64,000 nucleotides of DNA from NCBI GenBank assembly GCA_965214975.1, contig OZ244055.1, positions 3,239,448 through 3,303,447 of the forward strand, read 5' to 3'. Position numbers and translations under genes: made by a program. The stretch comes from Alphaproteobacteria bacterium. Its GTDB lineage: Bacteria; Pseudomonadota; Alphaproteobacteria; MPNO01; UBA830. Positions 11,861 to 62,086 of this stretch are shown piece after piece. Under the pieces are notes generated by a model. The model was not told where the DNA came from, did not search any database, and was given only the letters and a program-made list of their open reading frames with translations. Each line of letters opens with the position of its first letter. Position 1 is the stretch's first letter.

Positions 11861-11930
11861 ATTCCGTAGCCCCTAAAACCGTCGCCGCCGCGGTGCTATA
11901 ACGCCCGAAAAGGCAACGGGAGGCTTGGCG

Positions 11931-35200: not shown

Positions 35201-35201
35201 C

Positions 35202-36357: not shown

Positions 36358-37320
36358 CTAATACAACATATAGGCATTGCCTATATGCTGGGAGGCCGAG
36401 AACGCCTTCGATTCGGGTGGCAGCCACCGGTACTCGCCCGATCTGAGCGACTTGTCGATGTGCTGCCGTATCAGGTTGAAGACTTTCTGCGCCGCTTCGG
36501 AAAAGGCCGGCACGGGTTTCGAGTTCAGGTAGAGCCGGCACCAGATGCTGGGCTTCTCGATGTCATGGCACCGCAGCTCGCCCTTCAGGATCTGGTTGTG
36601 CAGGAACAGGTACGGGCCGATGAAGCCCCGTTGTCCGTTGGCGACCAGTTCCTGGCGGAGCAGCATCGAGTGAATCTGAAGCGGCCTGGTCAGGGGAACG
36701 TCCAGCTCTTTCGCGGCGCGGGGCGCGATGCCGCATTTGTCGAAAACGAGCGGCAGGTTCGCGGCGACCTCGAAGGGAACGCTGTCCGGAAGATTCCCGA
36801 TGAGTTCCTGGCTTCCGATCAGGCACATCCGGTCAAGATAGAGGGGGAAGGATTCGAACCGTTCGTCCTCCATCGGCGCGAACGACAGGGCGCAGTCGAT
36901 CTCGTCGGCGACCAGGGCAAGCGACAGGTTCTCGGTGAACTCGACGAAAATCGAGATCTCGAGATCCGGGACGAGCGCTTCCGCGGCTTCCAGCACGGTC
37001 GACATCACGGCGATGCCGATCGACGGAATGACGCCGATTCTCAGAACCTGCCTCGGCGCGGTTCGCAGATGGTCGACCGATTGCCGGGCGATCTCGAGGC
37101 GCCGCAGCACGTCCCGAACGTGCGAGAGATAGATGGAGCCCGCTTCCGTCAGTTCCACGCCTCGCGAATGACGACGGAAAAGCCGGAGGCCGAACTCGTC
37201 CTCGAGCTTCTTGATCTGCACCCCCAGAGTCGGCTGGGAGACGTTCAAGGCCTCCGCCGCGGCGGTGAAGCTGCCGTGTTCGGCCACCTTGCGGAAATAG
37301 CGAAGCTGTCTCAATTCCAT
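36358..37320 (-). CDS. LysR-family transcriptional regulator.
   Basis: 320 aa from MELRQLRYFRKVAEHGSFTAAAEALNVSQPTLGVQIKKLE (helix-turn-helix) followed by a LysR substrate-binding domain. The start was moved to the ATG at 37320; the track starts 26 codons upstream. Confidence 0.85.
   Translation of the reverse strand: MELRQLRYFRKVAEHGSFTAAAEALNVSQPTLGVQIKKLEDEFGLRLFRRHSRGVELTEAGSIYLSHVRDVLRRLEIARQSVDHLRTAPRQVLRIGVIPSIGIAVMSTVLEAAEALVPDLEISIFVEFTENLSLALVADEIDCALSFAPMEDERFESFPLYLDRMCLIGSQELIGNLPDSVPFEVAANLPLVFDKCGIAPRAAKELDVPLTRPLQIHSMLLRQELVANGQRGFIGPYLFLHNQILKGELRCHDIEKPSIWCRLYLNSKPVPAFSEAAQKVFNLIRQHIDKSLRSGEYRWLPPESKAFSASQHIGNAYMLY
36367..36387. promoter_or_regulatory. Perfect 21-bp palindrome CATATAGGCA-T-TGCCTATATG overlapping the last codons of the LysR gene, upstream of dctP copy 2.
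   Basis: Two 10-bp arms that are exact reverse complements. The corresponding sequence in repeat copy A is degraded (catatagatcccgactatac). Confidence 0.3.
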
Positions 37321-37377
37321 CCGGCGGGATCCGTGGCTGTGCGCCGCCCGTGCGGGGCCGTCAAGGCTCGCGACAGC

Positions 37378-37396
37378 CGTGACTCCTGTCAACGGC
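37378..37396. promoter_or_regulatory. Inverted repeat CCGTGAC-tcct-GTCAaCGG (T-N11-A type) upstream of the LysR gene; candidate LysR autoregulatory site.
   Basis: It sits 58 bp upstream of the LysR start and fits the TGAC-N4-GTCA symmetry of LysR-type-regulator boxes. Confidence 0.25.
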
Positions 37397-37620
37397 AAGC
37401 CGGCGGCGCTCCGGGACTGTCCCGCGCTGGCCGGGCATCCGCTCCGGGCGGGCCGGAGCGGTCCCGTCCGTGCCGTCCCGGCGGTCTGCGGGCTCCGGGG
37501 GCGCCGCCATTCGGACGGCTCCGTCGCGTCGCCCGTCGGACCGGCCGTTGCCCGTGATCGTGTCGACCACCGTGACCGTCCTCCCTATAATGGCGGGGAA
37601 ACGAAACGGGAGCGTGGACG

Positions 37621-38454: not shown

Positions 38455-40800
38455 TCAGGCTGCCGTCCCGTCCGCGATCAGTTTCCACACCTTGTGCGGG
38501 GTCGCGGGCAATTCCACGTGGTTCACCCCGTAGGGGCGCAGCGCGTCGACGAACGCGCTCACGATGACGGCGAGAGCGGGTGTCGTTCCGCCCTCTCCGC
38601 CGGCCTTGACGCCAAGCGGATTCGTCGGCGAGGGAATCTCGTGCAGTTCGGTGGAGAAGAACGGGTATTCGTCGGCTCGCGGCATGTGGTAGTCCATGAA
38701 CGAGCCCGCGAGAGGCTGGCCGGTCTCGCCGTCCACCGCGCACAGTTCGCCCAGCGCCTCTCCCGCCCCCTGGACGATGCCCCCGTGGGTCTGCCCGTCC
38801 ACGATCAGCGGGTTGATGGCGCGCCCGACATCGTCGACCGCCGCGTAGCGGACCAGATCGTGCGCCCCGGTCTCGGGGTCGATCTCGATCTCGCAGACAT
38901 GGCAGCCGTTCGGGAACACCGGCGTCTCCATGACGTTGTCCTCCGCGACGGCGAGGCCGTCCGCGAACTCGGCCGGACGGTCGGGCCGTCGCCGAACTGC
39001 GGCCGAGACCTCCCCCAGCGTCATCGCCCGGTCCGTTCCCCTGATCGCGAACCTGCCGTCGGCGAAGACGATGTCCTCCTCCGCGGCCTCGAGCAGCAGG
39101 GCGGCCAGCTCCCTGCCCTTCCGGACCAGCTCGTCGGCCGCCTTGACGATGACGGTTCCCGCCATGCGCATGGACCGGCCGGAATGCGATCCGCCGCCGA
39201 CCCTGACCACGTCCGTGTCGCCGACGATCACCCTGATTCGCTCCACCTCCACGCCGAGCCGCTCCGCGGCCACCTGCGCGAAGCTTGTCTCGTGGCCCTG
39301 GCCGCTCGGTTGGGTGCCGATGACGAGATCGATCGTGCCGTCGGTCCGCACCAGCAGACGCGCCTGCTCCCGCGGCGTGCCGACGGAGGATTCGACATAG
39401 GCCGCGATGCCGCGGCCGAGCAGGCGGCCGCGCGCTTCGGCATCGGCCCGGCGGGAGGGGAAGCCGTCCCAGTCCGCGAGGCGCATCGCCTTGTCGATGC
39501 CCGCGCCGTAGTCCCCGCTGTCGTAGGTCATGCCCACGGCGTTGGGATAGGGCATCTGCTCCGCGGTCACGAGGTTCCGGCGCCGCAGTTCCACCGCGTC
39601 GATCCCGAGCTCGGCAGCCGCCGACTCGACCAGCCTCTCGATGGCGAAGGTCACTTCGGGGCGGCCGGAGCTGCGGTAGGCGTTGGTCGGCGGCGTGTTG
39701 GTGAAGACGGCGCGCGATCGAAGCGATGCCGCGGGGATGCGGTAGGGGCCGGTGACCAGTCCCGAACCCTTGCTCAGCGGCGACAACGAGACCGCCCGCG
39801 CCCCGACGTTGCTCACGTTGTCGGCGCGGAGCGCGAGAAAGCGCCCCTCGCGGTCCAGTGCGAGCGATACCTCGGTGATCAGGTCGCGGCCCTGGTAGTC
39901 GCTCACGAAGGCCTCGCTCCGGCGGCAGGTGAACTTGACCGGTCGGTCCAGCCTGCGCGACGCCCACGCCACGAGGGGGAACTCGACGTACAGCCGGTTG
40001 CGGGTTCCGAAGTTCCCGCCGACGTCCTTGGAGATCACCCGCACGCGGTCCGGATCCACGCCGAGCACCTCGGCGATCTCGCGCTTCTGGCGCACCGACC
40101 CTCCCGAACCGGCGTGGATCGTGTAGCGCCCGGTCCCCGGGTCGTAGGCCCCGAGCGCCGAGCGCGGCTCGAGCGGCACGCCGGTCACCCGGGCGACGTG
40201 GAGCGTCATCGCGGCCACGTGGGCCGCGGTCCGGAACGCCTTGTCGGTGGCATCGCGGTCGCCGAAGAGGGTGTCGACGAAGACGTTGCCGTCCGTCCCG
40301 GGCCAGAGCCGCGGGGCGTCGGGGGCCAGCGCCTCCCGCGCTCCGGTGACGGGCGCGAGAGACTCGTAGTCGACCGAGACCCGTTCCGCCGCGTCTTCCG
40401 CCTGCGCCGCGGTCTCGGCCACCACGACCGCGACCGCCTCGCCCACGTGCCGCACCCGGTCCGTCGGCAGGAGCGCGTGCCCGCCGACGAACGGCTCGGT
40501 CCCGCCGGGGCCGTGCAGCTTCATGTCGTGCCTGGTCGACGGCAGGGGGTTGTGGGGAATCGGGGACAGCCCGTCGGCGACGCAGTCGGCGCCGGTGAAG
40601 ACGCCGAGAACGCCCTCCATCGCCGCCGCTTCCGATGTGTCGACGGACCGGATCCCGGCATGGGCATGGACCGACCGCACGACGCTCATCCACGCCTGCC
40701 CCTCCATGTGCCAGTCGTCGCTGAACCGGCCCTCGCCGGTCAGGAGGCGCCTGTCCTCCATGCGTCGGACCGGCCGGCCGATATGCCGGGGGAGCGTCAT
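38455..40800 (-). CDS. Xanthine dehydrogenase / aerobic CO-dehydrogenase family molybdopterin-binding large subunit (CoxL/aldehyde oxidase-like).
   Basis: 781 aa with the MoCo-hydroxylase large-subunit architecture (the N-terminus MTLPRHIGRPVRRMEDRRLLTGEGRFSDD is the typical a/b hammerhead start). No FeS or FAD subunit genes are adjacent. Confidence 0.9.
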   Translation of the reverse strand: MTLPRHIGRPVRRMEDRRLLTGEGRFSDDWHMEGQAWMSVVRSVHAHAGIRSVDTSEAAAMEGVLGVFTGADCVADGLSPIPHNPLPSTRHDMKLHGPGGTEPFVGGHALLPTDRVRHVGEAVAVVVAETAAQAEDAAERVSVDYESLAPVTGAREALAPDAPRLWPGTDGNVFVDTLFGDRDATDKAFRTAAHVAAMTLHVARVTGVPLEPRSALGAYDPGTGRYTIHAGSGGSVRQKREIAEVLGVDPDRVRVISKDVGGNFGTRNRLYVEFPLVAWASRRLDRPVKFTCRRSEAFVSDYQGRDLITEVSLALDREGRFLALRADNVSNVGARAVSLSPLSKGSGLVTGPYRIPAASLRSRAVFTNTPPTNAYRSSGRPEVTFAIERLVESAAAELGIDAVELRRRNLVTAEQMPYPNAVGMTYDSGDYGAGIDKAMRLADWDGFPSRRADAEARGRLLGRGIAAYVESSVGTPREQARLLVRTDGTIDLVIGTQPSGQGHETSFAQVAAERLGVEVERIRVIVGDTDVVRVGGGSHSGRSMRMAGTVIVKAADELVRKGRELAALLLEAAEEDIVFADGRFAIRGTDRAMTLGEVSAAVRRRPDRPAEFADGLAVAEDNVMETPVFPNGCHVCEIEIDPETGAHDLVRYAAVDDVGRAINPLIVDGQTHGGIVQGAGEALGELCAVDGETGQPLAGSFMDYHMPRADEYPFFSTELHEIPSPTNPLGVKAGGEGGTTPALAVIVSAFVDALRPYGVNHVELPATPHKVWKLIADGTAA

Positions 40801-42706: not shown

Positions 42707-43360
42707 TCAGAGGATCTTGCAGGCCTCGTCGAACCCGTACCGGTAGAGCCGGGGCCCCTTGATGCCCTCCAGATCCCCGTAGCCGATGTTGCACACGAAA
42801 TTGGATCTCCAGGTGGTGCCCTCGAAGAACGCCTTGTCCGCGACGTCGCGTTCGAAGCCGAGCATGGGGCCGGAATCGAGGCCGACCGCGCGTATGGCGA
42901 GAATCAGGTACGCCCCCTGCATGGTGCCCTGGTGCAGGGCGAGCCCCGCCGCTGCGGCCTCGTCGGACTTCCAGCGGTCCGCCATCTCGGGGCGGATCGG
43001 GTAGAGCCGCGCGAAGTCGTCGAAGAACCTGGTGTCGTAGGCCAGCAGCGCCACCACCGGTGCGGCCATCGTCTTGTCGACGTTCGGCGGCGCGAGAGAC
43101 GGCCTGAGCTTTTCCTTCGCCTCCCGGGAGCGCAGGAACACCAGCCGTCCGGGCATGGTGTTGGCGCTTGTCGGGCCGAACTTCATCAGATCCCAGATCT
43201 CGCGCAGCTGGTCGTCGGTGACGTCCCGGTCCTGCCAGGCGTTGTGGCTGCGCGCCTCCCGGAACAGCAGGTCGGCCGAGTCGTCGTCGAGTTTCCGGAT
43301 CCTCGAGCGGTAGGCCTCGATTCTGGCGTGGGCGGCGGCAAGGGCCTGGTCTTCCGGCAT
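42707..43360 (-). CDS. Nitroreductase-family protein, RutE / malonic-semialdehyde-reductase-like.
   Basis: …LLFREARSHNAWQDRDVTDDQLREIWDLMKFGPTSANTMP… is RutE-like. The start was moved to the ATG at 43360. Confidence 0.7.
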   Translation of the reverse strand: MPEDQALAAAHARIEAYRSRIRKLDDDSADLLFREARSHNAWQDRDVTDDQLREIWDLMKFGPTSANTMPGRLVFLRSREAKEKLRPSLAPPNVDKTMAAPVVALLAYDTRFFDDFARLYPIRPEMADRWKSDEAAAAGLALHQGTMQGAYLILAIRAVGLDSGPMLGFERDVADKAFFEGTTWRSNFVCNIGYGDLEGIKGPRLYRYGFDEACKIL

Positions 43361-43606
43361 GGTGTCTGCTCCCGAATTCGAAAGAACGGAACGCGCCGGC
43401 ACGGGTTTCCCGGATGGCCGACGGATGATGGCGAAAAGCGCCGGGACCGGCGTTCCGTCCGCGCGATCCCGACGCTTCCCTCAGGATAGCACGTCGCCCG
43501 GCGCAGGCAAGCGCCCCGCACGGGTGGCGGTTTACATCGACCCCGCCGATCGGCCACTATCCCCGGAATGCTGGGCGATCCGGCGGAAGACAGGGAGACA
43601 TCCGAA

Positions 43607-44700: not shown

Positions 44701-45384
44701 CTACCGGGCCGCTAGCGCCATGTCCCAGAACGCGGCCTCGAGCCGTGTCGCCTGGGCGAACGCCGCGCCCGGCCCGTCGAAAGGCGCGTTTCCGCCGCGC
44801 TCCGCCCAGAGCCGGTCGAGCAGCGCAACCGCCTCGCGGGCCACGTCCCCGTACTCGTCGCCGGCGTACATCTCGATCCACTCGCGGTAGGGGTTGCCGT
44901 CCGTCACGGTCGAGTCCGACGCGGCGAGAGCGGCGCCGATCTCGGCGTAGCCCACGATGCAGGGAGCGAGCGCGACCTGGAGGTCGAGCACGTCGCCGGC
45001 CAGCCCCCGGTCGATGACGTAGCGCGTGTAGGCGGTGGTCTCGACCGCCTCGGCCGCCTCCTCCATGTCCGCCTCGGTCAGGCCCCACCCCGCGCAGTAG
45101 CGCACGTGAAGGTCCATCTCCACGTCGACGATCGCCGAGAGCGCCGCCGCCGCGGCGCGGATGCCGGCGCGGGTGTCCGACTTGAACGCCGCCAGCGCCC
45201 AGGCCCGGGCGAAATGGACCAGGAACAGGTAGTCCTGGACCAGGTACCGGCGGAAGCACGCTTCCGGGAGCCGGCCGCTCCCGATCAGGGACACGAACTC
45301 GTGGCGCACGTAGGCGTCCCATTCCGCGGGGCAGGACGCCTTGAGCCGGGAGAACAGCGAATCGGGTGCGGCGATCGCGGACAT
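44701..45384 (-). CDS. tenA: TenA/THI-4 family aminopyrimidine aminohydrolase (thiaminase II).
   Basis: 227 aa, and the TenA catalytic Cys is present (ALAPCIVGY). Confidence 0.85.
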   Translation of the reverse strand: MSAIAAPDSLFSRLKASCPAEWDAYVRHEFVSLIGSGRLPEACFRRYLVQDYLFLVHFARAWALAAFKSDTRAGIRAAAAALSAIVDVEMDLHVRYCAGWGLTEADMEEAAEAVETTAYTRYVIDRGLAGDVLDLQVALAPCIVGYAEIGAALAASDSTVTDGNPYREWIEMYAGDEYGDVAREAVALLDRLWAERGGNAPFDGPGAAFAQATRLEAAFWDMALAAR

Positions 45385-45397
45385 CGGGCGCTCCGTG

Positions 45398-45724
45398 TCA
45401 CATCTGGTTGTTGGTCTCGGCCGGCAGCGTCAGGACCATGCCGTCGAGCGCGTCGGTGACGACGATCTGGCAGCCGAGGCGGGAGGTCGGCCGCACGCCC
45501 CACGCCAGGTCGAGGATGTATTCCTCCTCCTCGGACATCTCCGGCATCCGCGCGAACCGGTCGGGGTCGACGATCACGTGGCAGGTCGAGCAGGCCATGG
45601 AGCCCTCGCAGGCGCCCTCGACGCCGAGGCCGTTGTCCCATGCGACCTGGAGCACGGTCGTGCCGGCGTCGGCCTCGACCTCCGTGGAGTCGCCGTCCGG
45701 GGACACGAAAACCACCCTGGGCAT
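45398..45724 (-). CDS. [2Fe-2S] ferredoxin, adrenodoxin/ISC Fdx type.
   Basis: 108 aa with the Cys ligands C-x5-C-x2-C...C (GACEGSMACSTCH...LGCQ). Confidence 0.85.
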   Translation of the reverse strand: MPRVVFVSPDGDSTEVEADAGTTVLQVAWDNGLGVEGACEGSMACSTCHVIVDPDRFARMPEMSEEEEYILDLAWGVRPTSRLGCQIVVTDALDGMVLTLPAETNNQM

Positions 45725-45725
45725 T

Positions 45726-46835
45726 TCAGCCGGCCTTCCCCGGTCCGCCGCGGCGCTCCCGGATCGCGCGCCAGGCGGCGACGAAGCGCTCGACGTCGCC
45801 GGCCGTCGTGTCCCAGCCCAGGCTGACCCGGATCGCGCAGAGCGCGCGGTCGTCGGGAACCCCCATGGCGGAGAGGACGTAGGGCGGCTCGACGCGTCCG
45901 GCCGAGCATGCCGAACCCGCGCTGACCGCGATGCCCGCGAGATCGAACGCGATGACCTGGGTGTCGGCGGGCACGCCCGGCATGAGCATCTTGGAGGTGT
46001 TGGGAAGGCGCGGCGCGTCCGCGCCGAAGACCTCGAACCCCGGCGTCTCCGCGGCCAGCCTCCGTTCCATGCCGTCGCGCAGCCCGGCCAGCGCGGCCGC
46101 GGCGGGCAGTTCCTCCCGCGCGATCCGGGCCGCCGCGCCGAAGGCGGCGATGTGGGCGACGTTCTCGGTGCCGCCGCGCAGACCCCGTTCCTGGCGGCCG
46201 CCCCGCAGCAGGCTGTCGGCGCCGCCGGCGTCCCGCACCACGAGGGCGCCGACTCCCTGCGGCCCCCCGAGCTTGTGCGCCGACAGCGCCAGGGAGTCCG
46301 CCCCGAGCGCCGCGAAGTCCACGGGAATCTTGCCCGCCGCCTGCACCGCGTCGCAGTGAAGGCGGGCGCCGAACCGGCGCGCGATCCCGGCCGCCTCGGC
46401 GACCGGCTGGATGACGCCGGTCTCGTTGTTCGCGAGCATCAGCGCGACGCGGACGGGCCGGATCCGCCGGCAGGCGGCCTCCAGGGCCGCGAGGTCGACG
46501 ACGCCGGAGGAATCGACGGGGACGCGGACGGCGCCGGGGCAGGCCTCGAGAACGGCCGGATGCTCCACCGAGCTGACGACAGTGCGCCCGGGATCGCTCG
46601 CGCGCAGGATCTGGTTGTCGGCCTCGGTGCCGCCGCTGGTGAAGACGATCTGGTCCGGGGAGGCGCCCGCCAGGGCCGCGACCTCGCGCCGCGCGTCCTC
46701 GACGCGCCGGCGCGCGCGCCGGCCGGCGGCGTGCACGGACGAGGCGTTGCCGGTCTCGCGCAGCGCCTCGACGAGAACGTCGACGACCTCGGGCCGGATC
46801 CTTGCCGTGGCGTTGCAGTCGAGATATACCGGCAC
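45726..46835 (-). CDS. Cysteine desulfurase (NifS/IscS class-V aminotransferase).
   Basis: …VYLDCNATARIRPEVVD…, the PLP-Lys region SLSAHKLGGPQG, and the active-site Cys SAGSACSAG. The start is tentatively the GTG at 46835 (RSVPVYLD); the track extends to 46928. Confidence 0.75.
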   Translation of the reverse strand: MPVYLDCNATARIRPEVVDVLVEALRETGNASSVHAAGRRARRRVEDARREVAALAGASPDQIVFTSGGTEADNQILRASDPGRTVVSSVEHPAVLEACPGAVRVPVDSSGVVDLAALEAACRRIRPVRVALMLANNETGVIQPVAEAAGIARRFGARLHCDAVQAAGKIPVDFAALGADSLALSAHKLGGPQGVGALVVRDAGGADSLLRGGRQERGLRGGTENVAHIAAFGAAARIAREELPAAAALAGLRDGMERRLAAETPGFEVFGADAPRLPNTSKMLMPGVPADTQVIAFDLAGIAVSAGSACSAGRVEPPYVLSAMGVPDDRALCAIRVSLGWDTTAGDVERFVAAWRAIRERRGGPGKAG

Positions 46836-47033
46836 GCTGCGCGGCCGGCTCGCCGCGCGAGGTTCCGGGGGCGGGCGGCCGTGCCACGGTGCCGGATCCC
46901 GGGACGCTGGGTCGCGACGGGGCTGCATGCTGGCAACCTATGACCCCTCGGGGCCGTGTCAACCGCCGGGTCCGGCGTTCGGGGAAGGGGAACCCCGGCT
47001 GTCGCCGCCCGCCCGGCGCCGGAGGAACATCCG

Positions 47034-52241: not shown

Positions 52242-53249
52242 TCAGGGCGTGATGACGATCTTTCCGATCACCTCGCGGTCGCGCAGCCGGCGCACGCCCT
52301 CGGCCGTTTGCTCGAGCGGAAGCGTCTCGTCGATGACCGGGGCGAGGCGGCCCTCGGAAATCATCCCCATCAGCGTCTCGAGGTCTTCGGTGGTCCAGGA
52401 GTTGGACCCGAGGATCTTGAGCTCGAACGTCCACACGTAGCGCAGATCCTCCGCCGGGTCGTGGCCCGCCGTCGCGCCGCAGGTCAGGATCTTGCCGCCC
52501 CGCCGGGTGGCCTTGAGCGACGGAACCCAGGTGTCGCCGCCGGTGAAGTTGATCACCACGTCGACCCCGCCGTCGCGCCTGCGGCGGTGGGGCTTGCCGA
52601 ACAGCCCGTGGATCGTCCTCTCGAAGCTCTCGTAGCCGATGACGTGGTCGGCGCCCCAGGACTTCAGGGCCTCGAGCTTGTCCGGGCTCGAGCCGGCGGC
52701 GACCACCTCGCACCCCATCATGCGGGCGAGCAGCACGCAGCACGAACCCACGCCTCCGGACGCGCCGAGAACCAGCACCCTCTCGCCGCCCGTCATGCCG
52801 CCGTTCGTGACCATCATGCGGTGGGCCGTGCCGTAGGCCACCGGAAGCGCCGCGGCCTGGGCGTGGGAGCAGCCCTCGGGGATCGCGATCAGGCGCGTGG
52901 CGTCGACGGCGCAGTACTCCGCCGTTCCGCCGTCGAGCATCTCGCCCATCAGGCCCTTCTCGGGGGCGGTCGGATCCAGCGGGTTGACGAGCACGTCGTC
53001 GCCGACCTTCCAGCCGTCGACCCCGGCGCCGACCTCGGCGATCTCGCCGGCGATGTCGAGGCCGATGACGACGGGAAGCGGCACCTTGATGCCCGGCATT
53101 CCCCGGGTGGTGAAGACGTCGTGGTAGTTCAGCGACGTCGCCCGGACCCGCACGACGACCTGTCCGTCGCCGCATTGCGGATCGGCGTAGTCGGCGTGAT
53201 GGACCAGATTCTCGATGTCGCCGTGCTCGTGCAGAACGACTGCGCGCAA
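52242..53249 (-). CDS. Zinc-type alcohol dehydrogenase / quinone oxidoreductase (MDR family).
   Basis: 335 aa with the GroES-like and Rossmann motif LVLGASGGVGS. TTG start 6 nt after GGAGA. Confidence 0.85.
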   Translation of the reverse strand: MRAVVLHEHGDIENLVHHADYADPQCGDGQVVVRVRATSLNYHDVFTTRGMPGIKVPLPVVIGLDIAGEIAEVGAGVDGWKVGDDVLVNPLDPTAPEKGLMGEMLDGGTAEYCAVDATRLIAIPEGCSHAQAAALPVAYGTAHRMMVTNGGMTGGERVLVLGASGGVGSCCVLLARMMGCEVVAAGSSPDKLEALKSWGADHVIGYESFERTIHGLFGKPHRRRRDGGVDVVINFTGGDTWVPSLKATRRGGKILTCGATAGHDPAEDLRYVWTFELKILGSNSWTTEDLETLMGMISEGRLAPVIDETLPLEQTAEGVRRLRDREVIGKIVITP

Positions 53250-53529
53250 GATCTTTCTCCTCGGAGGGCCCGCCGACGGCGCCGGCCGGCGGATTCTGGG
53301 CGGAAACCCACGCTCTGACGGGATCTAAACGCGATCGCGCGGCCCGCGTCAATCGCCGCCGACGCAGACGATCCGCGAGAGCCGGCACGCGGGGGTCGTC
53401 CGCGCCGGTTCGACGGCGCGTTCGGGACCGCTGCCCGACGGCCCGGCGTTCCGGTCGCGCCGCGGCGACCGGCCGATCCCTGCCGAAAGCGGCGCGCCCG
53501 TCCCGGGACCGCCGCCGGCCGGGCCTCGT

Positions 53530-54459
53530 TCACGGCGCCGCGAACGGGTCGGCGCCCGGGGCGTGCAGCACGAACGCCGCGCCCGCCCCGGCCTCGGGGC
53601 GCACGACGAGGCGCCCGGGCTCGTCCGCGAGCAGGGGCACGTTCCGCTCCGCCAGAAACGCCCGCGTGCGCCCGAGATCGGCGCTGCGGACGGCCGCCGC
53701 CGCCATCAGCGGCAGCGACGGGATCCCGATGCCGGGCAGGATCGCGCGGCAGGCGGAGGGATCCGCGACGGCGATCTCGCCGCGGTCGAGGACGATCCTC
53801 CGGCATCCGCCGTCCCGTCCCGCCGGGCGGCCGGTGAAGCGGGCGTAGCGTTCCGCCGCCGCGTCCGCGTCGGCGGTGCAGATCAGCAGCCCCGACAGCA
53901 GGTCGGCGCCGTTGCCGGAGGCCGTCGCCGAGGGCTGCCACACCACGTCCGGGGTTTCCTGGGTCAGGATCTGGATGCGCCCCTCCGGCATGTCGTCGCG
54001 GGCGAGGCGGAGAACGGAAAACCCCGCGACCTCCTCGCCGCCGCCGTCGAGCGGCATCGGGCGGCGCAGCGCCACCGGCGGCGCGGCCTCGAAGCCGGCG
54101 GCGCGGAGCCGGTCGGCCGCGGCCGCCGTGTCGTTCACCGAGAACGCCGCCAGATGAAGGCCTTCGCGGCGTTCGAGCGCGGCGTCGATCTGGCGCGCGA
54201 GCGGGGTGTCGGCGCCCGGCGCCCGGACCAGCACCTCGAGATAGCCGCGCGCGATCATGGCGCAGCGGTTGGCGGTTCCCGACGGAACCCTGGTGCCGTC
54301 GGCGCGGGCGTTGGCATGCACGGCCAGCGGCGTCATCGGAAAGCCGAGGCGCCCGAAGGCCTCCGCGGCCGCGTCCATGTCGGCCACGAACCAGCCCACA
54401 TGGTCGAGGAAGATCTCGCCGCCGGCGGGCGTCTGCGCCGGAAGCGCCGCCGCCGTCAC
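53530..54459 (-). CDS. VOC (glyoxalase/bleomycin-resistance/dioxygenase) family protein with two VOC modules.
   Basis: About 309 aa. The GTG at 54459 overlaps the upstream stop (GTGA). It contains …FLDHVGWFVADMDAAAEAFGRLGF…. Confidence 0.7.
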   Translation of the reverse strand: MTAAALPAQTPAGGEIFLDHVGWFVADMDAAAEAFGRLGFPMTPLAVHANARADGTRVPSGTANRCAMIARGYLEVLVRAPGADTPLARQIDAALERREGLHLAAFSVNDTAAAADRLRAAGFEAAPPVALRRPMPLDGGGEEVAGFSVLRLARDDMPEGRIQILTQETPDVVWQPSATASGNGADLLSGLLICTADADAAAERYARFTGRPAGRDGGCRRIVLDRGEIAVADPSACRAILPGIGIPSLPLMAAAAVRSADLGRTRAFLAERNVPLLADEPGRLVVRPEAGAGAAFVLHAPGADPFAAP

Positions 54460-55076
54460 GCGAGCCGGCCCGGAGAGAGCGAGCTGCGCCCCCGGTCCGG
54501 GTTGGGCACCACGGAGAGCCGGAGCCGCTCCGAGAGATCGTCCGCCCCGCCCACGTAGGAGCCGTCGAGCCAGATCTGCGGGACGGTCACCGGAGTCCTG
54601 GCCCCGATGAGGGGCTTGACCCGGCCCAGCATCTCGTAGAGCGCGCGCGGCTCGCGGACGACGTCGTGATAGGCGTAGTCCACGCCGGCCTCGTCGAGAT
54701 ACCCCTTGGCGCGCGTGCAGTGCGGGCAGGACTCCTTGCCGAAGACGTGGTTGCCGCGGATGCCGCCGCGCCGGACGTGGGCGGCGATCACCGCCTCGGT
54801 CAGCACGCCGCGGTTGAGGGCGTGGCCCTGGCTGACGACGCGCCCCTCGACCGCGACGATCGGCGCGTGCCAGCCGCCGGCGGGAAGCGGCCGCCACCAC
54901 TCGCTGAGCCATTCGCGGTTGTCGAGCTCGACGGGGACGCCGGCGAGCTCGTTGGCGAAGGTGTCCTCGAGAACGTCGACGGTGAGCGCGCACTCGCCGC
55001 ACGGCACGCGGACCCTGAACGGGCCCCACCGCCCCGCCCAGCGGTACAGCGTCACCCTGACGGGATCCTCAGCCAT
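54456..55076 (-). CDS. Glutaredoxin-domain protein with a novel N-terminal Cys-containing domain.
   Basis: The C-terminal glutaredoxin module has CPHC and a …VPQIWLDGSYVGGADDL… signature. The N-terminal ~100 aa has CGEC and is of unclear family. Confidence 0.7.
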   Translation of the reverse strand: MAEDPVRVTLYRWAGRWGPFRVRVPCGECALTVDVLEDTFANELAGVPVELDNREWLSEWWRPLPAGGWHAPIVAVEGRVVSQGHALNRGVLTEAVIAAHVRRGGIRGNHVFGKESCPHCTRAKGYLDEAGVDYAYHDVVREPRALYEMLGRVKPLIGARTPVTVPQIWLDGSYVGGADDLSERLRLSVVPNPDRGRSSLSPGRLA

Positions 55077-55956
55077 GCCCGGCTTCGGCGCTTCCCGCCC
55101 CGTGGCGCTCCTCGAGCTCGAGAACGTCGCCGAACCCCATCAGGTCGTTGAACCCGGCGAAGGGGAAGAGATCGGCGGCGCCGATTCCGCCGGTCCGTTT
55201 CAGCGACGCGTAGACCCCGTCCAGCGCGGCGCAGGCGGAGAGGAAGCCGGCCGCCGGAAAGATCGCGATCCGGTAGCCGATGTCCGCGAGCTCGTCCGGC
55301 GAGAGCACCGGCGTCACGCCGCCGTGGACCATGTTGGCGAGCAGCGGCACCCCCGCGAAGCGGCGCGCGATCGCGCGCATCGCCGCGACGTCGGGCGGCG
55401 CCTCGCAGAACAGGACGTCGGCGCCCGCCTCGGCGTACGCCTCCGCGCGGCGCATGGCCTCGTCCATGCCGAGGGTCTTGATGGCGTCGGTGCGCGCCAC
55501 GATCAGCGTGTCGTCGGACCGCCGGGAGTCGAGCGCGACCTTGATCCTGGCGACCATGTCCTCGGCGGTCGCGAGCCGGTGCCCCGACAGATGGCCGCAC
55601 TTCTTGGGAAAGTCCTGGTCCTCGATCTGGATGGCGGCGACGCCGGCGCGCTCGTATCCGAGCACGGTCTGGCGGACGTTGGCCAGGCCGCCGTAGCCGG
55701 TGTCGGCGTCGGCGATCAGCGGGGTCGCGGTTCCGCCGGCGATGCAGGCCGCGCGCGCCACCATGTCGGTGTAGGTGGCGATCCCGGCGTCGGGCAGGCC
55801 GAGATGGGAGGCGACGGTTCCCGATCCGGTCATGTAGAGGGCCTCGAAGCCCATCGAATCGGCGATCTTCGCCGAGATCATGTCGAAAACGCCCGGCGCG
55901 ACGACGAACGCGCCGCCGTTGCGGACGGTGCCGGCGAACTCCGCTCCCGCCGTCAT
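55069..55956 (-). CDS. Isocitrate lyase/PEP mutase superfamily enzyme, methylisocitrate-lyase / oxaloacetate-decarboxylase-like.
   Basis: 295 aa with …IEDQDFPKKCGHLSGH… (the K-K-C-G-H lyase signature, not the EDK…NS PEP-mutase motif). The ATG overlaps the amidase stop (ATGA). Confidence 0.85.
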   Translation of the reverse strand: MTAGAEFAGTVRNGGAFVVAPGVFDMISAKIADSMGFEALYMTGSGTVASHLGLPDAGIATYTDMVARAACIAGGTATPLIADADTGYGGLANVRQTVLGYERAGVAAIQIEDQDFPKKCGHLSGHRLATAEDMVARIKVALDSRRSDDTLIVARTDAIKTLGMDEAMRRAEAYAEAGADVLFCEAPPDVAAMRAIARRFAGVPLLANMVHGGVTPVLSPDELADIGYRIAIFPAAGFLSACAALDGVYASLKRTGGIGAADLFPFAGFNDLMGFGDVLELEERHGAGSAEAGHG

Positions 55957-57319
55957 GGCCTTCTCCCGCGCCGATCCCGAGGATTCCCGAATATAGGCGG
56001 GCCGGCGCGGGTGGCAACCGCGGGCCGGGCCGCGTCGAGCGCGTCCCGGATCCGGCGCGCCCGCGCGATCAGCGCGGCGTCGTCGCCCGGCCTCGCCACC
56101 AGCTGCACGCCGAGCGGCATGCCGTGGGGGCCGGCGGCGAACGGAAGGGCGACCGCGGGGCCGTGCATCAGGGTCCATGCGCGGTTGAAGACCGAGACCG
56201 ACGGGCTCTCGAGGTCGGCCGGAGCCTCTCCCGCGGCCGGAAGCGTCAGCAGGACCGGGAACCGGTCGAAGACCGCGCCGAGGGCGTCGCGCGCGGCGGC
56301 GGCCCGGGCGCAGGCGGCGGCGTGCTGTTCCCGGGTCCATGACGAGCGGGCGGTTGCCCGGATCCAGGGGTTCGCGGACTCGACGGCGCGGCCGAAGTCC
56401 CCCTCGAGCGCCTTTCTGCCCTCGTGCTGCGAGATCGTCCGGAACGCGTCCTCGACCCCGTCGAACTCGGGCGGCAGGACGGCCTCGGCGACGTCCCAGC
56501 CCGCCGCTTCGAGGCGGGCGGCCGCGTCCCCGACGGCTGCCCGCGCCGCGGGCTCGGCCTCCTCCCAGCGGTCGGTCCGGCAAAGTCCGATGCGCACGGG
56601 CGCGTCGTCCCCGTGCGGCGCGGCGCCGGTGACGGCGCCGTGGACGAGCGCGATGTCCTCGACCGACCGGGCGAAGAATCCGAGGGTGTCGAGAGACGGC
56701 TTGAGGCCCCGGATGCCGCCGCGGTCGAGGCCGTCGAGACTCGCCTTGTAGCCGACGACGCCGCAATGCGCGGCGGGAAGGATGACGGAGCCCCCGGTCT
56801 GCGTGCCGTTGGCCAGAGGCGTCGCCGACGCGGCGACGGCGGCCGCGGAACCGCTCGAGGACACGCCCGGCGTGCGCGACGTGTCGTGCGGGTTGCGGAC
56901 GCCGGCGGGAACGGGGCTCGCGAGTTCGGTGGTCGCCGTCTTGCCGAGGATGACGGCCCCGGCCTCCCGGAGCGCGGCCACGCAGCGCGAGTCGGCGGCC
57001 GGGCGATGGCCCCGGAAGGCGGGCGAGCCGTACTCGGTCGGCATGTCGAACGTGTCGAGCACGTCCTTGACGCCCACCGGCACGCCGTGGAGCGGCCCGA
57101 GCGGCGGATCCGCGGCGTCCCGGGCGCGGGCCTGCCCCAGGGCCAGATCGCGGTCGACGAAGCGCCAGGCGCCGAGCCTGCCGTCGGTCTCGGCGATGCG
57201 GCGGAGGCAGGCGTCGACGATCTCCTCGGACGTCGCGTTCCCGTCCGCGACCGCCCGCGCGGCGTCGCGGGCGGTCAGGCCGCAGAGGGCGTCGGCCGGA
57301 GCCGGGACGGCGCCCGCGG

Positions 57320-57323
<4 letters not shown>
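55953..57323 (-). CDS. Amidase-signature family amidase.
   Basis: About 456 aa with the amidase-signature sequence GGSSSGSAAAVA and catalytic Lys/Ser regions. The GTG at 57323 overlaps the ligase stop (GTGA). Confidence 0.85.
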
Positions 57324-58903
<1,580 letters not shown>

Positions 58904-58939
58904 GTCCGCTCTCTCCGGTTTGGCGTCCGCCCGGCGCGT

Positions 58940-60364
58940 TTACGGCAGGCGCTGCAGCAGGCGCACGATCTTCCGCGTCCGCTCGCTGAACAGGGCCGGC
59001 GTGAAGTAGCTGCCGGCCGCGCGCTTCCCCGCCTCGCCGAGGGTCGGGTAGGGCAGGATCAGGCCGGCGAGATGCTTGATCTTCATCCGTTTTTGGACAG
59101 GGAGGATCCAGCTCTGGATCAGCTCGCCGGCATGGGCGCCGACGATCGACGCCCCGACCACGACGCCTTTCGCCGTGGCAACGATCTTGACGAGGCCCTC
59201 GGTCTCGCGTTCGGCCCGGGCGCGGTCGTTGTCCGAGAACGGATGGCGCAGCACGCGGACAGCGCCGTGGCGCTCGCGGGCCCCGGCTTCGGTGAGACCG
59301 ACATGGGCGAGCTCCGGGTCGGTGTAGGTGACCCACGGCAGCGCGCGGTAGTCGACCTTCGCCGGCAGGCGGAACAGCGCGTTGCGGATGACGATGCCGG
59401 CGTGGTAGCCGGCGACGTGGGTGAACTGCGGGCTGCCGGCGGCGGCGTCGCCGATCGCGAAGACCCGGCGGTTGGTGGTGCGCAGCCGGGCGTCGACCCT
59501 GATGCCGCCCGGGCCCGAGACGATGCCGGCGGCCTCGAGGTCGAGAGCCTCGAGGTTGGGCCGCCGTCCGGCCGCGACCAGCAGGTGGGATCCCTCCACG
59601 CGCCCCGGTTCGCCGTCGAGGGAGACGGCGATGCCGCCGGCGGTTCTCTCGACGCCGTCGATCGCGACGCCCTCGTGGATCTCCACGCCTTCGGCGAGCA
59701 TCCGGTTCCTGACCACATCGGAGAGTTCGGGGTCGTCATTGCCGAGCATGAAGAGCATCTCGAGGATGGTGACCCGCGCGCCGAGACGGCGGTGGGCCTG
59801 GGCGAGTTCGCTGCCGATCGGGCCACCGCCGACGATCACGAGATGTTCGGGCACCGCCCGGTTGTCGAAGACGGTCTCGTTGGTCAGGAAAGGCACGTCC
59901 CGAAGCCCCGGGATCGGCGGCACGCCGGCCGACGAGCCGGTGGCCACGACGAACCGCCTGGCCGCGATCTCGAGGTCTCCGGCCCGCACGCGGTCGGGGC
60001 CGACGAACCGGCCGGCCGCCCGGACGACGCGCACGCCGAGGCCCTCGAAGCGTTCCGCCGAATCGTTGGGCGCGATGGCGTCGATGACGCCGTGCACGTG
60101 GGCATGCACCTTCCCGAAGTCGACCGCCGGCTCCGACGGCGCGATGCCGAAGCGGCCAGAGGTCGTGAACGCGTGCGCGGCGCGGGCGGCCGCGATCAGC
60201 GATTTCGAGGGGACGCATCCGTAGTTCAGGCAGTCGCCGCCCATGCGGCCGCGTTCGATCAGGACGACGTCGGCCCCCATCTGCGACGCCCCGGCGGCGA
60301 CCGACAGGCCGCCGGAACCGGCGCCGATGACGCAGATGTCCGTCGAGACCGTTTCCGCGGTCAC
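58940..60364 (-). CDS. FAD-dependent pyridine-nucleotide-disulfide oxidoreductase (dihydrolipoamide-dehydrogenase / mercuric-reductase-like, without a metal-binding N-domain).
   Basis: About 474 aa with the FAD motif GAGSGG, redox disulfide GDCLNYGCVPSK, the NAD motif GGGPIGSE, and a C-terminal dimerisation/His-Pro-Glu region. The GTG at 60364 overlaps the DedA stop (GTGA). Confidence 0.85.
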   Translation of the reverse strand: MTAETVSTDICVIGAGSGGLSVAAGASQMGADVVLIERGRMGGDCLNYGCVPSKSLIAAARAAHAFTTSGRFGIAPSEPAVDFGKVHAHVHGVIDAIAPNDSAERFEGLGVRVVRAAGRFVGPDRVRAGDLEIAARRFVVATGSSAGVPPIPGLRDVPFLTNETVFDNRAVPEHLVIVGGGPIGSELAQAHRRLGARVTILEMLFMLGNDDPELSDVVRNRMLAEGVEIHEGVAIDGVERTAGGIAVSLDGEPGRVEGSHLLVAAGRRPNLEALDLEAAGIVSGPGGIRVDARLRTTNRRVFAIGDAAAGSPQFTHVAGYHAGIVIRNALFRLPAKVDYRALPWVTYTDPELAHVGLTEAGARERHGAVRVLRHPFSDNDRARAERETEGLVKIVATAKGVVVGASIVGAHAGELIQSWILPVQKRMKIKHLAGLILPYPTLGEAGKRAAGSYFTPALFSERTRKIVRLLQRLP

Positions 60365-61158
60365 GGCGTCTTCGCGCGGCGCGCCCCGCGCTCCCGGATC
60401 TTCCTGTAGACCAGCGGCACGCAGGCCAGAAGCGCGAGGCCCGCGATCGGCGCCAGGATCCGTGGCGAGAAGATGATGCCGAGATCGAGATCGCCGCCCT
60501 GGTCGAGCACCGCGCCGGCGCCGTCCCCCACCAGCGCGTAGACGAAGGATCCCGGAATGATGCCCACGAAGGTGCAGATCATGTAGAGACGGAAGCTGAC
60601 GCCGAGAAACGCCGGCACCAGGTTGACGAGCCAGAACGGGAACAGGGGCACGAGCCGCAGGATCAGCATGTAGCTCACGCCGTTGTCGCGGAACTCGGTC
60701 TCCATGCGCTTGACCGTCGGCCCGGCCTTGGCCCGCAGCCAGTCGCCGACGGCGTAGCGGGCCGCGAGGAACACCGCGGCCGCGCCGACGCTGGCCCCGA
60801 CGACCGTGTAGAGCGTGCCGACGACCGGGCCGTAGAGAAAGCCGCCCGTGATCGTGATGATCGTCGCGCCCGGAACCGAGAACGCGACGGCGGCGGCGTA
60901 GACCAGCATGTAGAGCAACGCCGCCGCGAGGGTGTTGGCCTCGACCCATGCCCGCATGGTCCCGCGGTGCTCCTTCAGGAGGTCGAGCGAGAGATAGGCG
61001 TCGAGGTCGAACGCGAAGAACGCGGCGAGACCGGCCACGAGCAGCGCCGCGGGCGCGAGGCGCTTGACCGACAGGCCCGCCCTGCCGCCGGGCCGGACGC
61101 CGCCGGGCGGTTCGGGCGCCGGGTTCGTCGGGCCGGTATCCTGAGGGACCATCCGCAT
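60361..61158 (-). CDS. DedA / TVP38 / TMEM64 family membrane protein.
   Basis: 265 aa with a SNARE-associated Golgi-type DedA core (…VPGATIITITGGFLYG…FLVNLVPAFLGVSFRLY…). Confidence 0.85.
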   Translation of the reverse strand: MRMVPQDTGPTNPAPEPPGGVRPGGRAGLSVKRLAPAALLVAGLAAFFAFDLDAYLSLDLLKEHRGTMRAWVEANTLAAALLYMLVYAAAVAFSVPGATIITITGGFLYGPVVGTLYTVVGASVGAAAVFLAARYAVGDWLRAKAGPTVKRMETEFRDNGVSYMLILRLVPLFPFWLVNLVPAFLGVSFRLYMICTFVGIIPGSFVYALVGDGAGAVLDQGGDLDLGIIFSPRILAPIAGLALLACVPLVYRKIRERGARRAKTP

Positions 61159-61507
61159 CCTTTCCGGGGTCGCCGCGAAACCGCCGGCCCGTCCTGGCCG
61201 CGGTTCCCGCCGGGAACGGCGGGGGGCGACCCGATTCTAGCGATCCTCCGGGATCGAGTCGAAAACCGCCGCGGACCGGCGATTCGTTCCGCGGTTCCGG
61301 CAGGCGGCCCGGCCACGGCGTCTCGTTCGGTCGGACGGCCGGCGTGCCGGCGGGGCGCGGTCCGGGAAACGGTCGGCGGGCGTCCGGCTGCCGTCGGCCC
61401 GCGCCGTTCGCGCGCTTGCCGGGGCATCGACCGGACTTCCGCTCCGACTTGACCGGCCGGCGCGCCGGTCGTAGGTTTCCGCACGCTGGAATCACGGGAG
61501 AGGCGGC

Positions 61508-62086
61508 TTGCCGGCTCCGCGATTCGCCGGATTCCCGGCCCTGTTCCTCGCGACGGCGTTGCTGGCCGGGTCCGTCGGCGCCCAGTCCGAACGGAAGGAC
61601 GAGAAACCCCCCGCTCCGGGCCGCGACTGCGCCGACGTGTCGATCGACTACGTCGACGTGCCGGGGCTGACCCGGGAGGAGCGGATCGCGCGGATGGACG
61701 TCGCCCTCGCGCGTTCGCTCGGCCGCTTCGACGAGTGCCAGGAGGCCCGGGCGTCCCCGGGCGGAGGGGGAGGCGCGGACTCGCTGGCCGCCGGGGACAT
61801 CTCGGGCGGGGCGGCCGCCGACGCGTCCGGATCCCGCGGCGGGGCCGGGGGCGTCGACGGCGCAACGGACGGATCGACGGAAACGGCGACGGCGGCCACC
61901 GAGCCGGTCGGCAGGACGCCGGAGGACATTCCGCCCGCCGACAACGACAGCGTGCTGGAGGCGATGATCCGCAAGGCGGCGACGGAAGAGACGGACCCCG
62001 AGGTGAGGAAGCGCCTGTGGAACGAGTACCGCCGCTACAAGGGACTGCCCGCGGGCGATCGAGGGAGATCCCGGAGACCGGAATGA
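61508..62086 (+). CDS. Hypothetical secreted protein (192 aa), Gly/Asp-rich.
   Basis: TTG start after GGGAGAGG. It has a signal peptide (MPAPRFAGFPALFLATALLAGSVGAQS), a low-complexity acidic Gly-rich middle, and a C-terminus …RKRLWNEYRRYKGLP. Confidence 0.55.
   Translation: MPAPRFAGFPALFLATALLAGSVGAQSERKDEKPPAPGRDCADVSIDYVDVPGLTREERIARMDVALARSLGRFDECQEARASPGGGGGADSLAAGDISGGAAADASGSRGGAGGVDGATDGSTETATAATEPVGRTPEDIPPADNDSVLEAMIRKAATEETDPEVRKRLWNEYRRYKGLPAGDRGRSRRPE

Follow-up and report, generated by a model that had tools for sequence, protein, structure and literature searches.

The seven genes considered here lie on the minus strand at positions 53530-61158 of a 64,000-nt stretch of an alphaproteobacterial genome (contig OZ244055.1, assembly GCA_965214975.1), the whole of which is referred to as the window. 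An initial annotation had taken them for a single coupled operon with no obvious known pathway, in which a membrane protein and a disulfide reductase were welded to a CoA-ligase/amidase/lyase module, possibly for the catabolism of an amide-linked aromatic acid. Comparison with related lineages argues for a different reading, namely that the stretch is probably a lineage-specific compaction of a longer conserved alphaproteobacterial neighbourhood and comprises at least four modules, not one pathway. The first module would consist of DedA and an FAD disulfide reductase (FADox), and the second of a benzoate-CoA ligase, an amidase resembling malonamidase E2 (MAE2), and a lyase resembling 2,3-dimethylmalate lyase (DML) and oxaloacetate acetylhydrolase (OAH). 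The third would be a stand-alone tandem thioredoxin-fold glutaredoxin (Grx) protein with two CxxC sites, and the fourth a VOC protein that is elsewhere coupled to ChaC. DedA-FADox, Grx and VOC most likely each perform their own functions, and the seven-gene "pathway" as a whole is not a new kind of system. Translation of the minus strand yields seven complete open reading frames (ORFs), given here from upstream to downstream with their lengths in amino acids (aa):

60361-61158, minus strand: DedA/VTT-domain membrane protein, 265 aa (PF09335, 85.5 bits)
58940-60364, minus strand: FADox, a class-I FAD/NAD(P)H disulfide reductase, MerA/Lpd-like, 474 aa (Pfam/NCBIfam)
57320-58903, minus strand: enzyme of the benzoate-CoA ligase family, 527 aa (TIGR02262)
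55953-57323, minus strand: amidase-signature hydrolase of the malonamidase-E2 branch, 456 aa (PF01425)
55069-55956, minus strand: C-C lyase of the isocitrate lyase (ICL)/PEP-mutase superfamily, 295 aa (PF13714)
54456-55076, minus strand: tandem thioredoxin-fold Grx protein, 206 aa (glutaredoxin match in the C-terminal half)
53530-54459, minus strand: VOC-superfamily protein (Glyoxalase_3), 309 aa (PF13468)

Conservation of gene order

Genomic contexts were gathered by exact look-ups of homologous proteins, by a genome scan anchored on an amidase alignment, and by a metagenome scan anchored on the lyase, which was far more informative than the amidase-anchored scan. Among the matches listed, the latter returned mostly paralogues of 40-50% identity, with clear orthologues only in loci L005 and L006. 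A total of 176 loci were surveyed by tblastn with all window proteins and with the BoxB, BoxC, PhyH, RidA and ChaC proteins of locus L087, and dereplication at 97% nucleotide identity gave 26 lineages with an orthologous amidase and/or lyase; the counts that follow use those lineages with enough flanking sequence.

The amidase lies directly upstream of the lyase in 20/20 lineages and is preceded by a benzoate-type ligase in 14/15, with boxB and boxC further upstream of this trio in 10/12 lineages and a PhyH-family dioxygenase between ligase and amidase in 12/19. DedA is found in 2 of the 12 trio lineages (L001 and L090) and FADox in none of the 12, Grx adjoins the lyase in the same two lineages of 24, and VOC is present within 10 kb in 5/12, together with ChaC. 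L001 and L090, with 67-68% G+C, are the closest relatives of the window; the proteins of L001 are 65-87% identical to those of the window, the proteins of L090 are closely similar, and both loci are without FADox and carry ChaC and a luciferase-like gene, neither of which occurs in the window. Conservation of the seven-gene order across genomes had been named as a check on the proposed operon, and that order is not kept beyond the window's own family (L001 and L090), whose members lack FADox. Nor did the picture of one welded pathway hold up, as elsewhere the trio adjoins boxC and boxB, and DedA-FADox, Grx and VOC are each found in other contexts.

The closest lineage outside the window's family, L176 (63% G+C), has a ligase 77%, an amidase 68%, a lyase 76% and a Grx 83% identical to those of the window, in the order boxC, boxB, ligase, amidase, lyase, a mobile/defence insert, Grx, a DtxR-like regulator and ribonucleotide reductase (RNR). 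The order in marine lineages is RidA, acyl-CoA synthetase, boxC, boxB, ligase, PhyH, amidase, lyase, DtxR-like regulator, RNR, VOC-ChaC, MDR dehydrogenase and acyl-CoA synthetase, and that of the window is DedA, FADox, ligase, amidase, lyase, Grx, VOC, MDR and acyl-CoA synthetase. The simplest account of these arrangements would be compaction, within the lineage of the window, of a conserved block of synteny. By this account boxCB (and PhyH) would have gone from the locus and DedA(-FADox) would have come to abut the ligase, while the loss of DtxR-RNR from between Grx and VOC, and of ChaC from after VOC, would have brought lyase, Grx and VOC together. In keeping with this, three junctions that overlap in the window are open in L001, where 7 nt separate ligase from amidase, 71 nt amidase from lyase and 54 nt Grx from VOC.

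Gene boundaries and junctions

The coordinates and overlaps given in the initial annotation were reproduced on re-reading, and all seven genes translate as complete proteins. GTGA overlaps lie at 60361-60364, 57320-57323 and 54456-54459 and an ATGA overlap at 55953-55956, the lyase and Grx genes share 8 nt at 55069-55076 (ATGGCTGA), and the sole intergenic gap, of 36 nt between FADox and ligase (58904-58939), holds a GGAGAG ribosome-binding site. All seven domain assignments were borne out by Pfam and NCBIfam (VTT/DedA, Pyr_redox, ligase, amidase, PEP_mutase/ICL, glutaredoxin and Glyoxalase_3), and the genes further downstream are those first described: MDR, acyl-CoA synthetase, EamA, CE4-like and AnmK. 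For none of the seven genes was an in-frame start candidate found further upstream of the chosen start within the 150 nt examined, and the N-termini of VOC and of the amidase agree with those of homologues. Independent gene calls in a metagenome-assembled genome (GCA_964347355.1), whose FADox protein (P0241) is 100% identical to that of the window, concur for FADox and the ligase and give a DedA of 263 aa, two codons shorter. On its 5' side DedA is separated by a 350-nt spacer from a divergent gene, and at the other end a 280-nt spacer separates VOC from the downstream MDR gene. An Rfam scan found no riboswitch or leader in the cluster.

Overlaps of 4 nt and tight packing are common in high-GC genomes, and the G+C content of the window is ~72%. 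The tight packing is a sign of co-directional compaction, not of shared function, and the lesson of the locus is that, at 72% GC, modules with nothing to do with one another can become joined by close overlaps.

Promoters and transcription units

A consensus scan gave two sites, as against 0.2 expected in shuffled sequences, and a third element was recognised downstream of the cluster:

61234-61262, minus strand: sigma-70-like promoter candidate TCGACT-17-TAGAAT, a weaker match in the consensus scan, 76 nt upstream of the DedA start
55990-56017, minus strand: sigma-70-like promoter TTGCCA-16-TATATT, matching at 10/12 positions, within the final 25 codons of the amidase, with 33 nt between it and the lyase ATG
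53324-53352, minus strand: TTGACG-17-TTTAGA element within the 280 nt that separate VOC from MDR, missed by the strict consensus scan

The second of these is the only strong match within the cluster, and its hexamers recur unchanged in L001 (~9060-9090) and L090 (~11605-11635), where they lie in the intergenic spacer between amidase and lyase. Distant lineages have a counterpart at the same place and with the same spacing but a diverged spacer sequence, reading TTGCCT-16-TATATT in L005 and L096, TTGTTT-16-TATAGT in L087 and TTGTGC-16-TATAGT in L093. This is good comparative evidence for a predicted promoter belonging to the lyase itself. The homologues of the amidase stop at ~430 aa, and in the window the ORF continues ~25 codons beyond this usual end; the ATGA overlap exists because these codons read through what is the intergenic promoter region of the relatives. 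If the lyase has a promoter of its own, the ATGA overlap that seems to couple it to the amidase in the window would be a derived read-through.

In the window, as in L001, L090 and L100, the MDR gene is preceded by a TTGACG hexamer with the conserved spacing of 17 nt, from which it follows that the seven-gene unit ends at VOC; the element at 53324-53352 is likely the promoter of the next unit and would mark the 3' limit of the cluster. No intrinsic terminators were found in 53000-61700. On this layout the element at 61234-61262 is the probable promoter of DedA-FADox-ligase-amidase, the promoter inside the 3' end of the amidase gene would additionally drive lyase-Grx-VOC, and MDR would start a new unit, which makes at least two transcription units likely. 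The earlier notion of a single transcript fares poorly here, as the conserved internal promoter upstream of the lyase argues against one obligatory transcript.

The benzoate-CoA ligase and the box context

The ligase scores 595.4 bits against TIGR02262 (cut-off 375.25) over residues 21-525 of 527, and its best matches in the PDB are the benzoate-CoA ligase of B. xenovorans (2v7b, 444 bits), BadA of R. palustris (418 bits) and an anthranilate-CoA ligase (396 bits). It is 71-81% identical to the ligases that adjoin BoxB/BoxC in L005, L085, L087, L093-L110 and L176, and at the level of sequence it is the orthologue of the ligase in alphaproteobacterial boxC-boxB clusters. From its family membership and synteny-based orthology, we infer that it turns benzoate or a close analogue into the CoA thioester. 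The box genes with which these ligases are associated are genuine by equivalog models in L087, with 927 bits for BoxC (cut-off 712) and 843 bits for BoxB (cut-off 499). In the aerobic benzoyl-CoA pathway, boxB encodes the epoxidase and boxC the epoxide hydrolase/lyase, and without BoxAB and BoxC the CoA ester is not dearomatised.

The described box clusters of Azoarcus/Aromatoleum evansii and Burkholderia xenovorans (bclA, boxA-D) have a ligase of the same TIGR02262 family, and orthologues of the window ligase adjoin boxC and boxB of equivalog level; the window, however, is without boxA, boxB, boxC and boxD. The 64-kb window has no tblastn match to the BoxB or BoxC of L087 at E < 1e-8, and neither the cluster nor the 10-kb flanks of L085, L087 and L176 contain the Pfam architectures of boxA or boxD. 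The related alphaproteobacterial clusters differ from the described ones in carrying the amidase, the ICL-like lyase and often a PhyH dioxygenase, which to our knowledge are not part of the described box pathway. A preprint on SAR116 likewise notes a missing boxD. The searchable literature yielded nothing relevant on box genes in combination with an amidase, a malonamidase or an ICL-like lyase, and the ligase-(PhyH)-amidase-lyase genes appended to boxCB in Alphaproteobacteria seem to make up a variant, so far undescribed, of a catabolic cluster that is itself known. In a plasmid collection the amidase had no match, and the ligase matched only at 45-47% identity (Thermus, Mycetohabitans and others).

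These results divide the first interpretation of the locus. The remark that the genes belong to no known pathway stands for the amidase and the lyase, which are still without an assigned one, and falls for the ligase, the only gene for which a characterised pathway (box) was found. Similarly, the suggested theme of an aromatic acid or amide is plausible and the ligase is indeed of the benzoate-CoA type, but a single route through all seven genes is not supported. RidA and PhyH occur in many related clusters and molybdenum hydroxylases adjoin some of them, which, together with the absent boxA and boxD, are clues to a nitrogen-bearing or amide-linked aromatic substrate. The amidase and ICL-like lyase, often with PhyH, accompany the boxCB ligase in abundant marine and soil Alphaproteobacteria, and a role for this pair would fill a gap in the understanding of how aromatic carbon and nitrogen are used in the ocean.

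A formate-tetrahydrofolate ligase gene lies divergently upstream of DedA in L001 (3238-4917) and L090 (5495-7174) and not in the window; formate is a product of BoxC, and this gene could be a relic of a former box cluster, or its presence could be due to chance.

The amidase and the lyase

The amidase belongs to PF01425 (241 bits) and has the Ser-cisSer-Lys triad and the GGSS(G/A)GS signature of that family, with Lys86, the SSSGS motif at 155-159 and Ser179 invariant among 20 orthologues (alignment A1). Its best match in the PDB by far is malonamidase E2 of Bradyrhizobium japonicum (1ock, 1o9o), at 222 bits as against 115 bits for the next family, and the Lys and two Ser residues of the triad are kept. 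The two enzymes differ at the position of MAE2 Arg158, which is reported (Shin et al. 2002) to bind the carboxylate of malonamate. Both the window amidase and the consensus of the 20 orthologues have Leu at the aligned position, and the genomic context is one of aromatic catabolism, not of malonate metabolism; in view of the Arg158 position the enzyme is not called a malonamidase here. The change from Arg to Leu suggests as the probable substrate a small amide that bears no carboxylate (hydrophobic or aromatic) and is split into an acid and ammonia, and substrates of the benzamide type would directly feed the ligase.

The lyase matches PF13714 at 144 bits and carries the motifs of the lyase branch of the ICL/PEP-mutase superfamily, namely KKCGH at 118-122, DADTGYG and IEDQ; that branch is marked by a K(K/R)CGH catalytic loop with a general-acid Cys and by Asp/Glu metal ligands. 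Its best PDB matches are 2,3-dimethylmalate lyase (3fa3, 204 bits), oxaloacetate acetylhydrolase (3lye, 181 bits) and methylisocitrate lyase (3eoo, 172 bits). These three motifs, KKCGH being that of the gating loop, are shared with the branch that unites DML, OAH, petal death protein and methylisocitrate lyase; the lyase differs in that, here, it comes after the amidase without exception and lies outside any prp or nicotinate context. Assignment as the PrpB methylisocitrate lyase was discarded, with a score of 242.3 bits against the prpB model TIGR02317 (cut-off 354.4) and no prp genes nearby. With its full catalytic motif, the enzyme is predicted to cleave a 2-hydroxy-dicarboxylate to a 2-oxo acid and a carboxylate.

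A second clade of lyases, 58-65% identical, is encoded divergently from a different amidase (30-42% identical) in a soil metagenome locus (L138, 5527-11667) and similarly in L131-L172, so that the pairing of an amidase with an ICL-like lyase recurs in another aromatic-type context. L138 also has genes for a kynurenine-formamidase-like cyclase, a UbiD-family decarboxylase, a DUF3891 protein and a GntR regulator.

DedA and the FAD disulfide reductase

The initial annotation described DedA with a pyridine-nucleotide-disulfide oxidoreductase (PNDR) as a recurring and unexplained gene pair, and this was confirmed. The window DedA, which has several hydrophobic segments, is 62% identical to the DedA adjoining the FADox orthologue in L175, where the pair stands on its own beside rnpA, yidD, yidC and engB, 0.3 Mb from the boxC-boxB-ligase-amidase genes (L085) of the same 4.48-Mb genome. 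The two proteins are fused in a 724-aa homologue (P0307, 68% identical), and Todor et al. 2023 (PMC10127716) report that COG0398 DedA proteins are most often fused to PF07992/PF02852, with no function assigned. In the window, the VTT/DedA gene lies directly upstream of the gene with PF07992 and PF02852, with a 4-nt overlap. These are the two Pfam families of the published COG0398 DedA-PNDR pair, the window DedA being placed at the Pfam level, and the only unusual feature, with no other substantive difference, is the position beside a catabolic ligase. DedA-FADox is an independent, housekeeping-like membrane/redox pair, and the window adds one more example of a DedA linked to a flavoprotein disulfide reductase, lying in essential-gene territory in Alphaproteobacteria.

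FADox has the domains Pyr_redox_2 and Pyr_redox_dim and a redox-active CLNYGC motif at residues 45-50, and more than 100 orthologues share 64-90% identity with it; neither L001 and L090 nor any of the box-type loci has it at the corresponding place. It has the fold, the FAD/NAD(P) binding and the CxxxxC redox centre of MerA, Lpd and RclA, and its best PDB match is MerA (5x1y, 265 bits), but it falls below every equivalog cut-off, with 369 bits against 454 for MerA (TIGR02053) and 332 against 409 for Lpd (TIGR01350). A role as mercuric reductase was rejected on this score and on the sequence of the protein, which differs from MerA in having neither the NmerA domain nor the C-terminal Cys-Cys pair that delivers Hg(II), its only cysteines being at 11, 45 and 50. 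It was likewise rejected as a dihydrolipoyl dehydrogenase, being under the cut-off and without the C-terminal His-Glu dyad (HxxxxE); in the (H/Y)PT..E motif near the C-terminus, which reads YPTLGE, it has Tyr where Lpd has His.

The tandem thioredoxin-fold glutaredoxin protein

The Grx protein has more than 2000 homologues, of which the best 120 (P0001-P0120), from many lineages of Pseudomonadota, are 69-98% identical over the full length, indicating that both halves are under strong constraint; an exact search gave no identical protein on record. The C-terminal half is a dithiol glutaredoxin with CPHC (117-120), the cis-Pro motif TVP and the glutathione-binding motif GGxDD, the same motifs as in Grx3-type dithiol glutaredoxins, and its best sequence match is E. 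coli Grx3. The N-terminal half, which the initial annotation had called an unrecognised Cys-containing domain, does indeed match no Pfam or NCBIfam model; its fold, however, is not unfamiliar. AlphaFold models of the whole protein (pLDDT 84.8) and of residues 1-105 alone (pLDDT 84.3) give this half a topology of beta-alpha-beta ... beta-beta-alpha, in which helix 1 begins at the invariant CGEC (26-29), and as modelled it is a second thioredoxin-fold redox domain with a novel sequence.

An internal duplication was considered and rejected, as hhalign of the N-terminal against the C-terminal half gave a probability of 0.3%, the fold alone being common to both. The architecture of two thioredoxin folds, each with a CxxC, is that of two-domain protein disulfide oxidoreductases (PDO), such as that of Aquifex (2ayt); the Grx protein is not a sequence homologue of PDO, and differs in its N-domain motif (CGEC) and in a family distribution that, as far as seen, is confined to Pseudomonadota. 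This defines the architecture of a family of tandem-CxxC thioredoxin/glutaredoxin proteins in which conservation is very strong. The gene stands alone in 4/4 distant genomes (L003, from Pelagibius, L004, L091 and L092), in unrelated and partly housekeeping contexts, and L091 is a third site in the 4.48-Mb genome that holds L085 and L175. In L176 Grx precedes the DtxR-like regulator and RNR genes, a placement that hints at a role as a reductant for RNR.

The VOC protein, ChaC and the downstream MDR gene

The VOC protein matches PF13468 at 94 bits (cut-off 25), with conserved His20, His48, Glu75 and His102, and has no sequence relative in the PDB. In L001, L090 and L087 its counterpart is encoded by the first gene of a translationally coupled VOC-ChaC pair with a 4-nt overlap, and tblastn found no match to ChaC in the window, nor a remnant of it in the 280-nt VOC-MDR spacer. 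VOC-ChaC may be a unit for the processing of glutathione or thiol conjugates, from which the window would have lost ChaC. In L087 the pair lies 6 kb from the lyase, on the far side of the genes for ribonucleotide reductase and the DtxR-like regulator, and the MDR gene that comes after it is the same as in the window; the MDR of L100 is 83% identical to that of the window and precedes a more distant acyl-CoA synthetase (39% identity).

The spans concerned are 18114-21296 in L087, 10682-13278 in L001 and 15560-19400 in L100. Between VOC-ChaC and MDR, L087 has genes for an AsnC-type regulator and a cysteine-dioxygenase-like protein, and the MDR proteins are 83-87% identical to that of the window. 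Identification of the downstream MDR as AcuI/acrylyl-CoA reductase, which would link the locus to dimethylsulfoniopropionate and acrylate, was rejected at 99 bits against a cut-off of 440, and catabolism of homarine was rejected as the homABCDE genes of the hom operon encode unrelated protein types.

Alternative readings

Several observations weigh against compaction of separate modules. The seven genes are packed as tightly as those of any operon, and read-through from the DedA promoter across all of them is likely, so that co-expression and some functional coupling are possible. The promoters are predicted matches to a consensus whose support comes solely from their conservation, and the internal lyase promoter is not present in L176. 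The long-range order ligase...VOC...MDR recurs in the distant loci L087 and L100 and could reflect function rather than inherited synteny. The loci compared come mostly from metagenome-assembled genomes or metagenome contigs, representing a limited set of marine and soil lineages. Finally, the substrate of the ligase is deduced from family and synteny, and an anthranilate-CoA ligase scores almost as well as the benzoate-CoA ligases in the PDB search.

This last observation bears on the alternative that fares best, although it is unlikely, in which the trio has become independent of the box pathway as a self-contained three-step route for a substrate other than benzoate, with a ligase re-specialised for, e.g., anthranilate, hydroxybenzoate or a heteroaromatic acid. 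The steps could be, for example, hydrolysis of an amide, activation of the acid with CoA, and cleavage of a hydroxy-acid by-product by the lyase. Such a route would fit the absence of boxB and boxC from the 64-kb window and from the locus in L001 and L090, the loss of PhyH in the window's lineage, the RidA and molybdenum hydroxylase genes near related clusters, with their hint at nitrogen-bearing aromatics, and the recurrence of the lyase with a different amidase in soil loci that have UbiD and a cyclase. Yet the identity of the ligase to box-linked ligases speaks for a function that has not changed, all the more as it reaches 77% with L176, where boxCB is retained, and box genes may lie elsewhere in the 3.8-Mb genome.

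It can also be asked, within the compaction reading, what the trio does where the box genes are retained. One proposal, which we regard as speculative and rather improbable as it stands, is that the ligase-(PhyH)-amidase-lyase block of boxCB clusters is an undescribed upper pathway that feeds amide-linked benzoates such as hippurate into the box pathway, and that the window holds a box-less derivative. With hippurate, the PhyH dioxygenase would hydroxylate the alpha-carbon of the glycine moiety, and the ICL-like enzyme would release glyoxylate and benzamide by a retro-aminal C-N cleavage, proposed by analogy with its retro-aldol chemistry; the MAE2-like amidase, with Leu for Arg, would then give benzoate and ammonia, and the ligase benzoyl-CoA. 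Alternatively, the block may handle a nitrogen-bearing analogue (e.g. aminobenzoyl-CoA, with ring cleavage releasing an amide) or may compensate for the missing boxD. An upper pathway for amide-linked benzoates, if true, would be of clear interest for the biochemistry of the marine carbon and nitrogen cycles.

It is very unlikely that all seven genes together make up a new route for the catabolism of a hippurate-like aromatic acid, amide-linked or N-acylated, with thiol/disulfide chemistry by FADox, Grx and VOC and with DedA as transporter. DedA, FADox and Grx are found in only 2/12, 0/12 and 2/24 of the lineages where the trio is conserved, FADox is missing even from the two closest relatives, DedA-FADox and Grx are kept at 60-85% identity in unrelated contexts of the housekeeping type, and the conserved internal promoter splits the cluster. 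These results outweigh the tight packing and overlaps, the benzoate-type ligase that accompanies the amidase in 14/15 lineages, and the further glutathione-related genes near the loci of relatives (ChaC, and cysteine dioxygenase in L087), as well as the thiol-based protection that the reactive epoxide and aldehyde intermediates of the box pathway could call for. Least credible of all is a thiol/oxidative-stress operon of DedA-FADox, the tandem-CxxC Grx and VOC with the catabolic genes as passengers trapped by deletions, for although 4/7 products are of redox or detoxification type, FADox resembles the RclA, MerA-like and hypothiocyanite-reductase classes, and MsrA and nitroreductases are encoded elsewhere in the window, no other genome examined has the redox genes side by side and the trio, which sits mid-cluster, is the conserved part.

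Other features of the window

Outside the seven-gene stretch, the window contains further genes of aromatic metabolism. At 11925-13409 on the plus strand, an aldehyde dehydrogenase gene lies beside that of a DmpG-type (HMGL-like) aldolase, in a context of the meta-cleavage type. The plus-strand segment 11925-16227 as a whole, with the aldehyde dehydrogenase, intervening ORFs and the DmpG-type 4-hydroxy-2-oxovalerate aldolase, is a lower meta-cleavage segment, which indicates that the organism has other aromatic routes. On the minus strand, 26713-27735, 29529-30806 and 30892-31647 encode two VanA-type Rieske oxygenases together with an SDR; identity to products of genes flanking the box cluster of L087 is 50% for the SDR and 43% for one of the oxygenases. 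A large-subunit molybdenum hydroxylase of the xanthine-dehydrogenase family is encoded at 38455-40800 (minus strand), and similar enzymes adjoin ligase-amidase in L085 and lie near DedA in L001 and L090.

Two nitroreductase-family genes are found at 27827-28660 and 42707-43402. The region 33639-37398, with a LysR regulator and two paralogous TRAP-type DctP solute-binding proteins that have long N-terminal extensions, lies in the stretch of lowest G+C (0.64-0.68), and the box clusters of L085 and L176 likewise have TRAP transporter genes beside them. The only Rfam match in the window is a single tRNA gene at 5028-5101 on the plus strand (RF00005, 70.6 bits). Downstream of AnmK and on the same (minus) strand, 44701-46928 encodes a TenA-type thiaminase II (129.6 bits, cut-off 130) and a NifS/IscS-like cysteine desulfurase.

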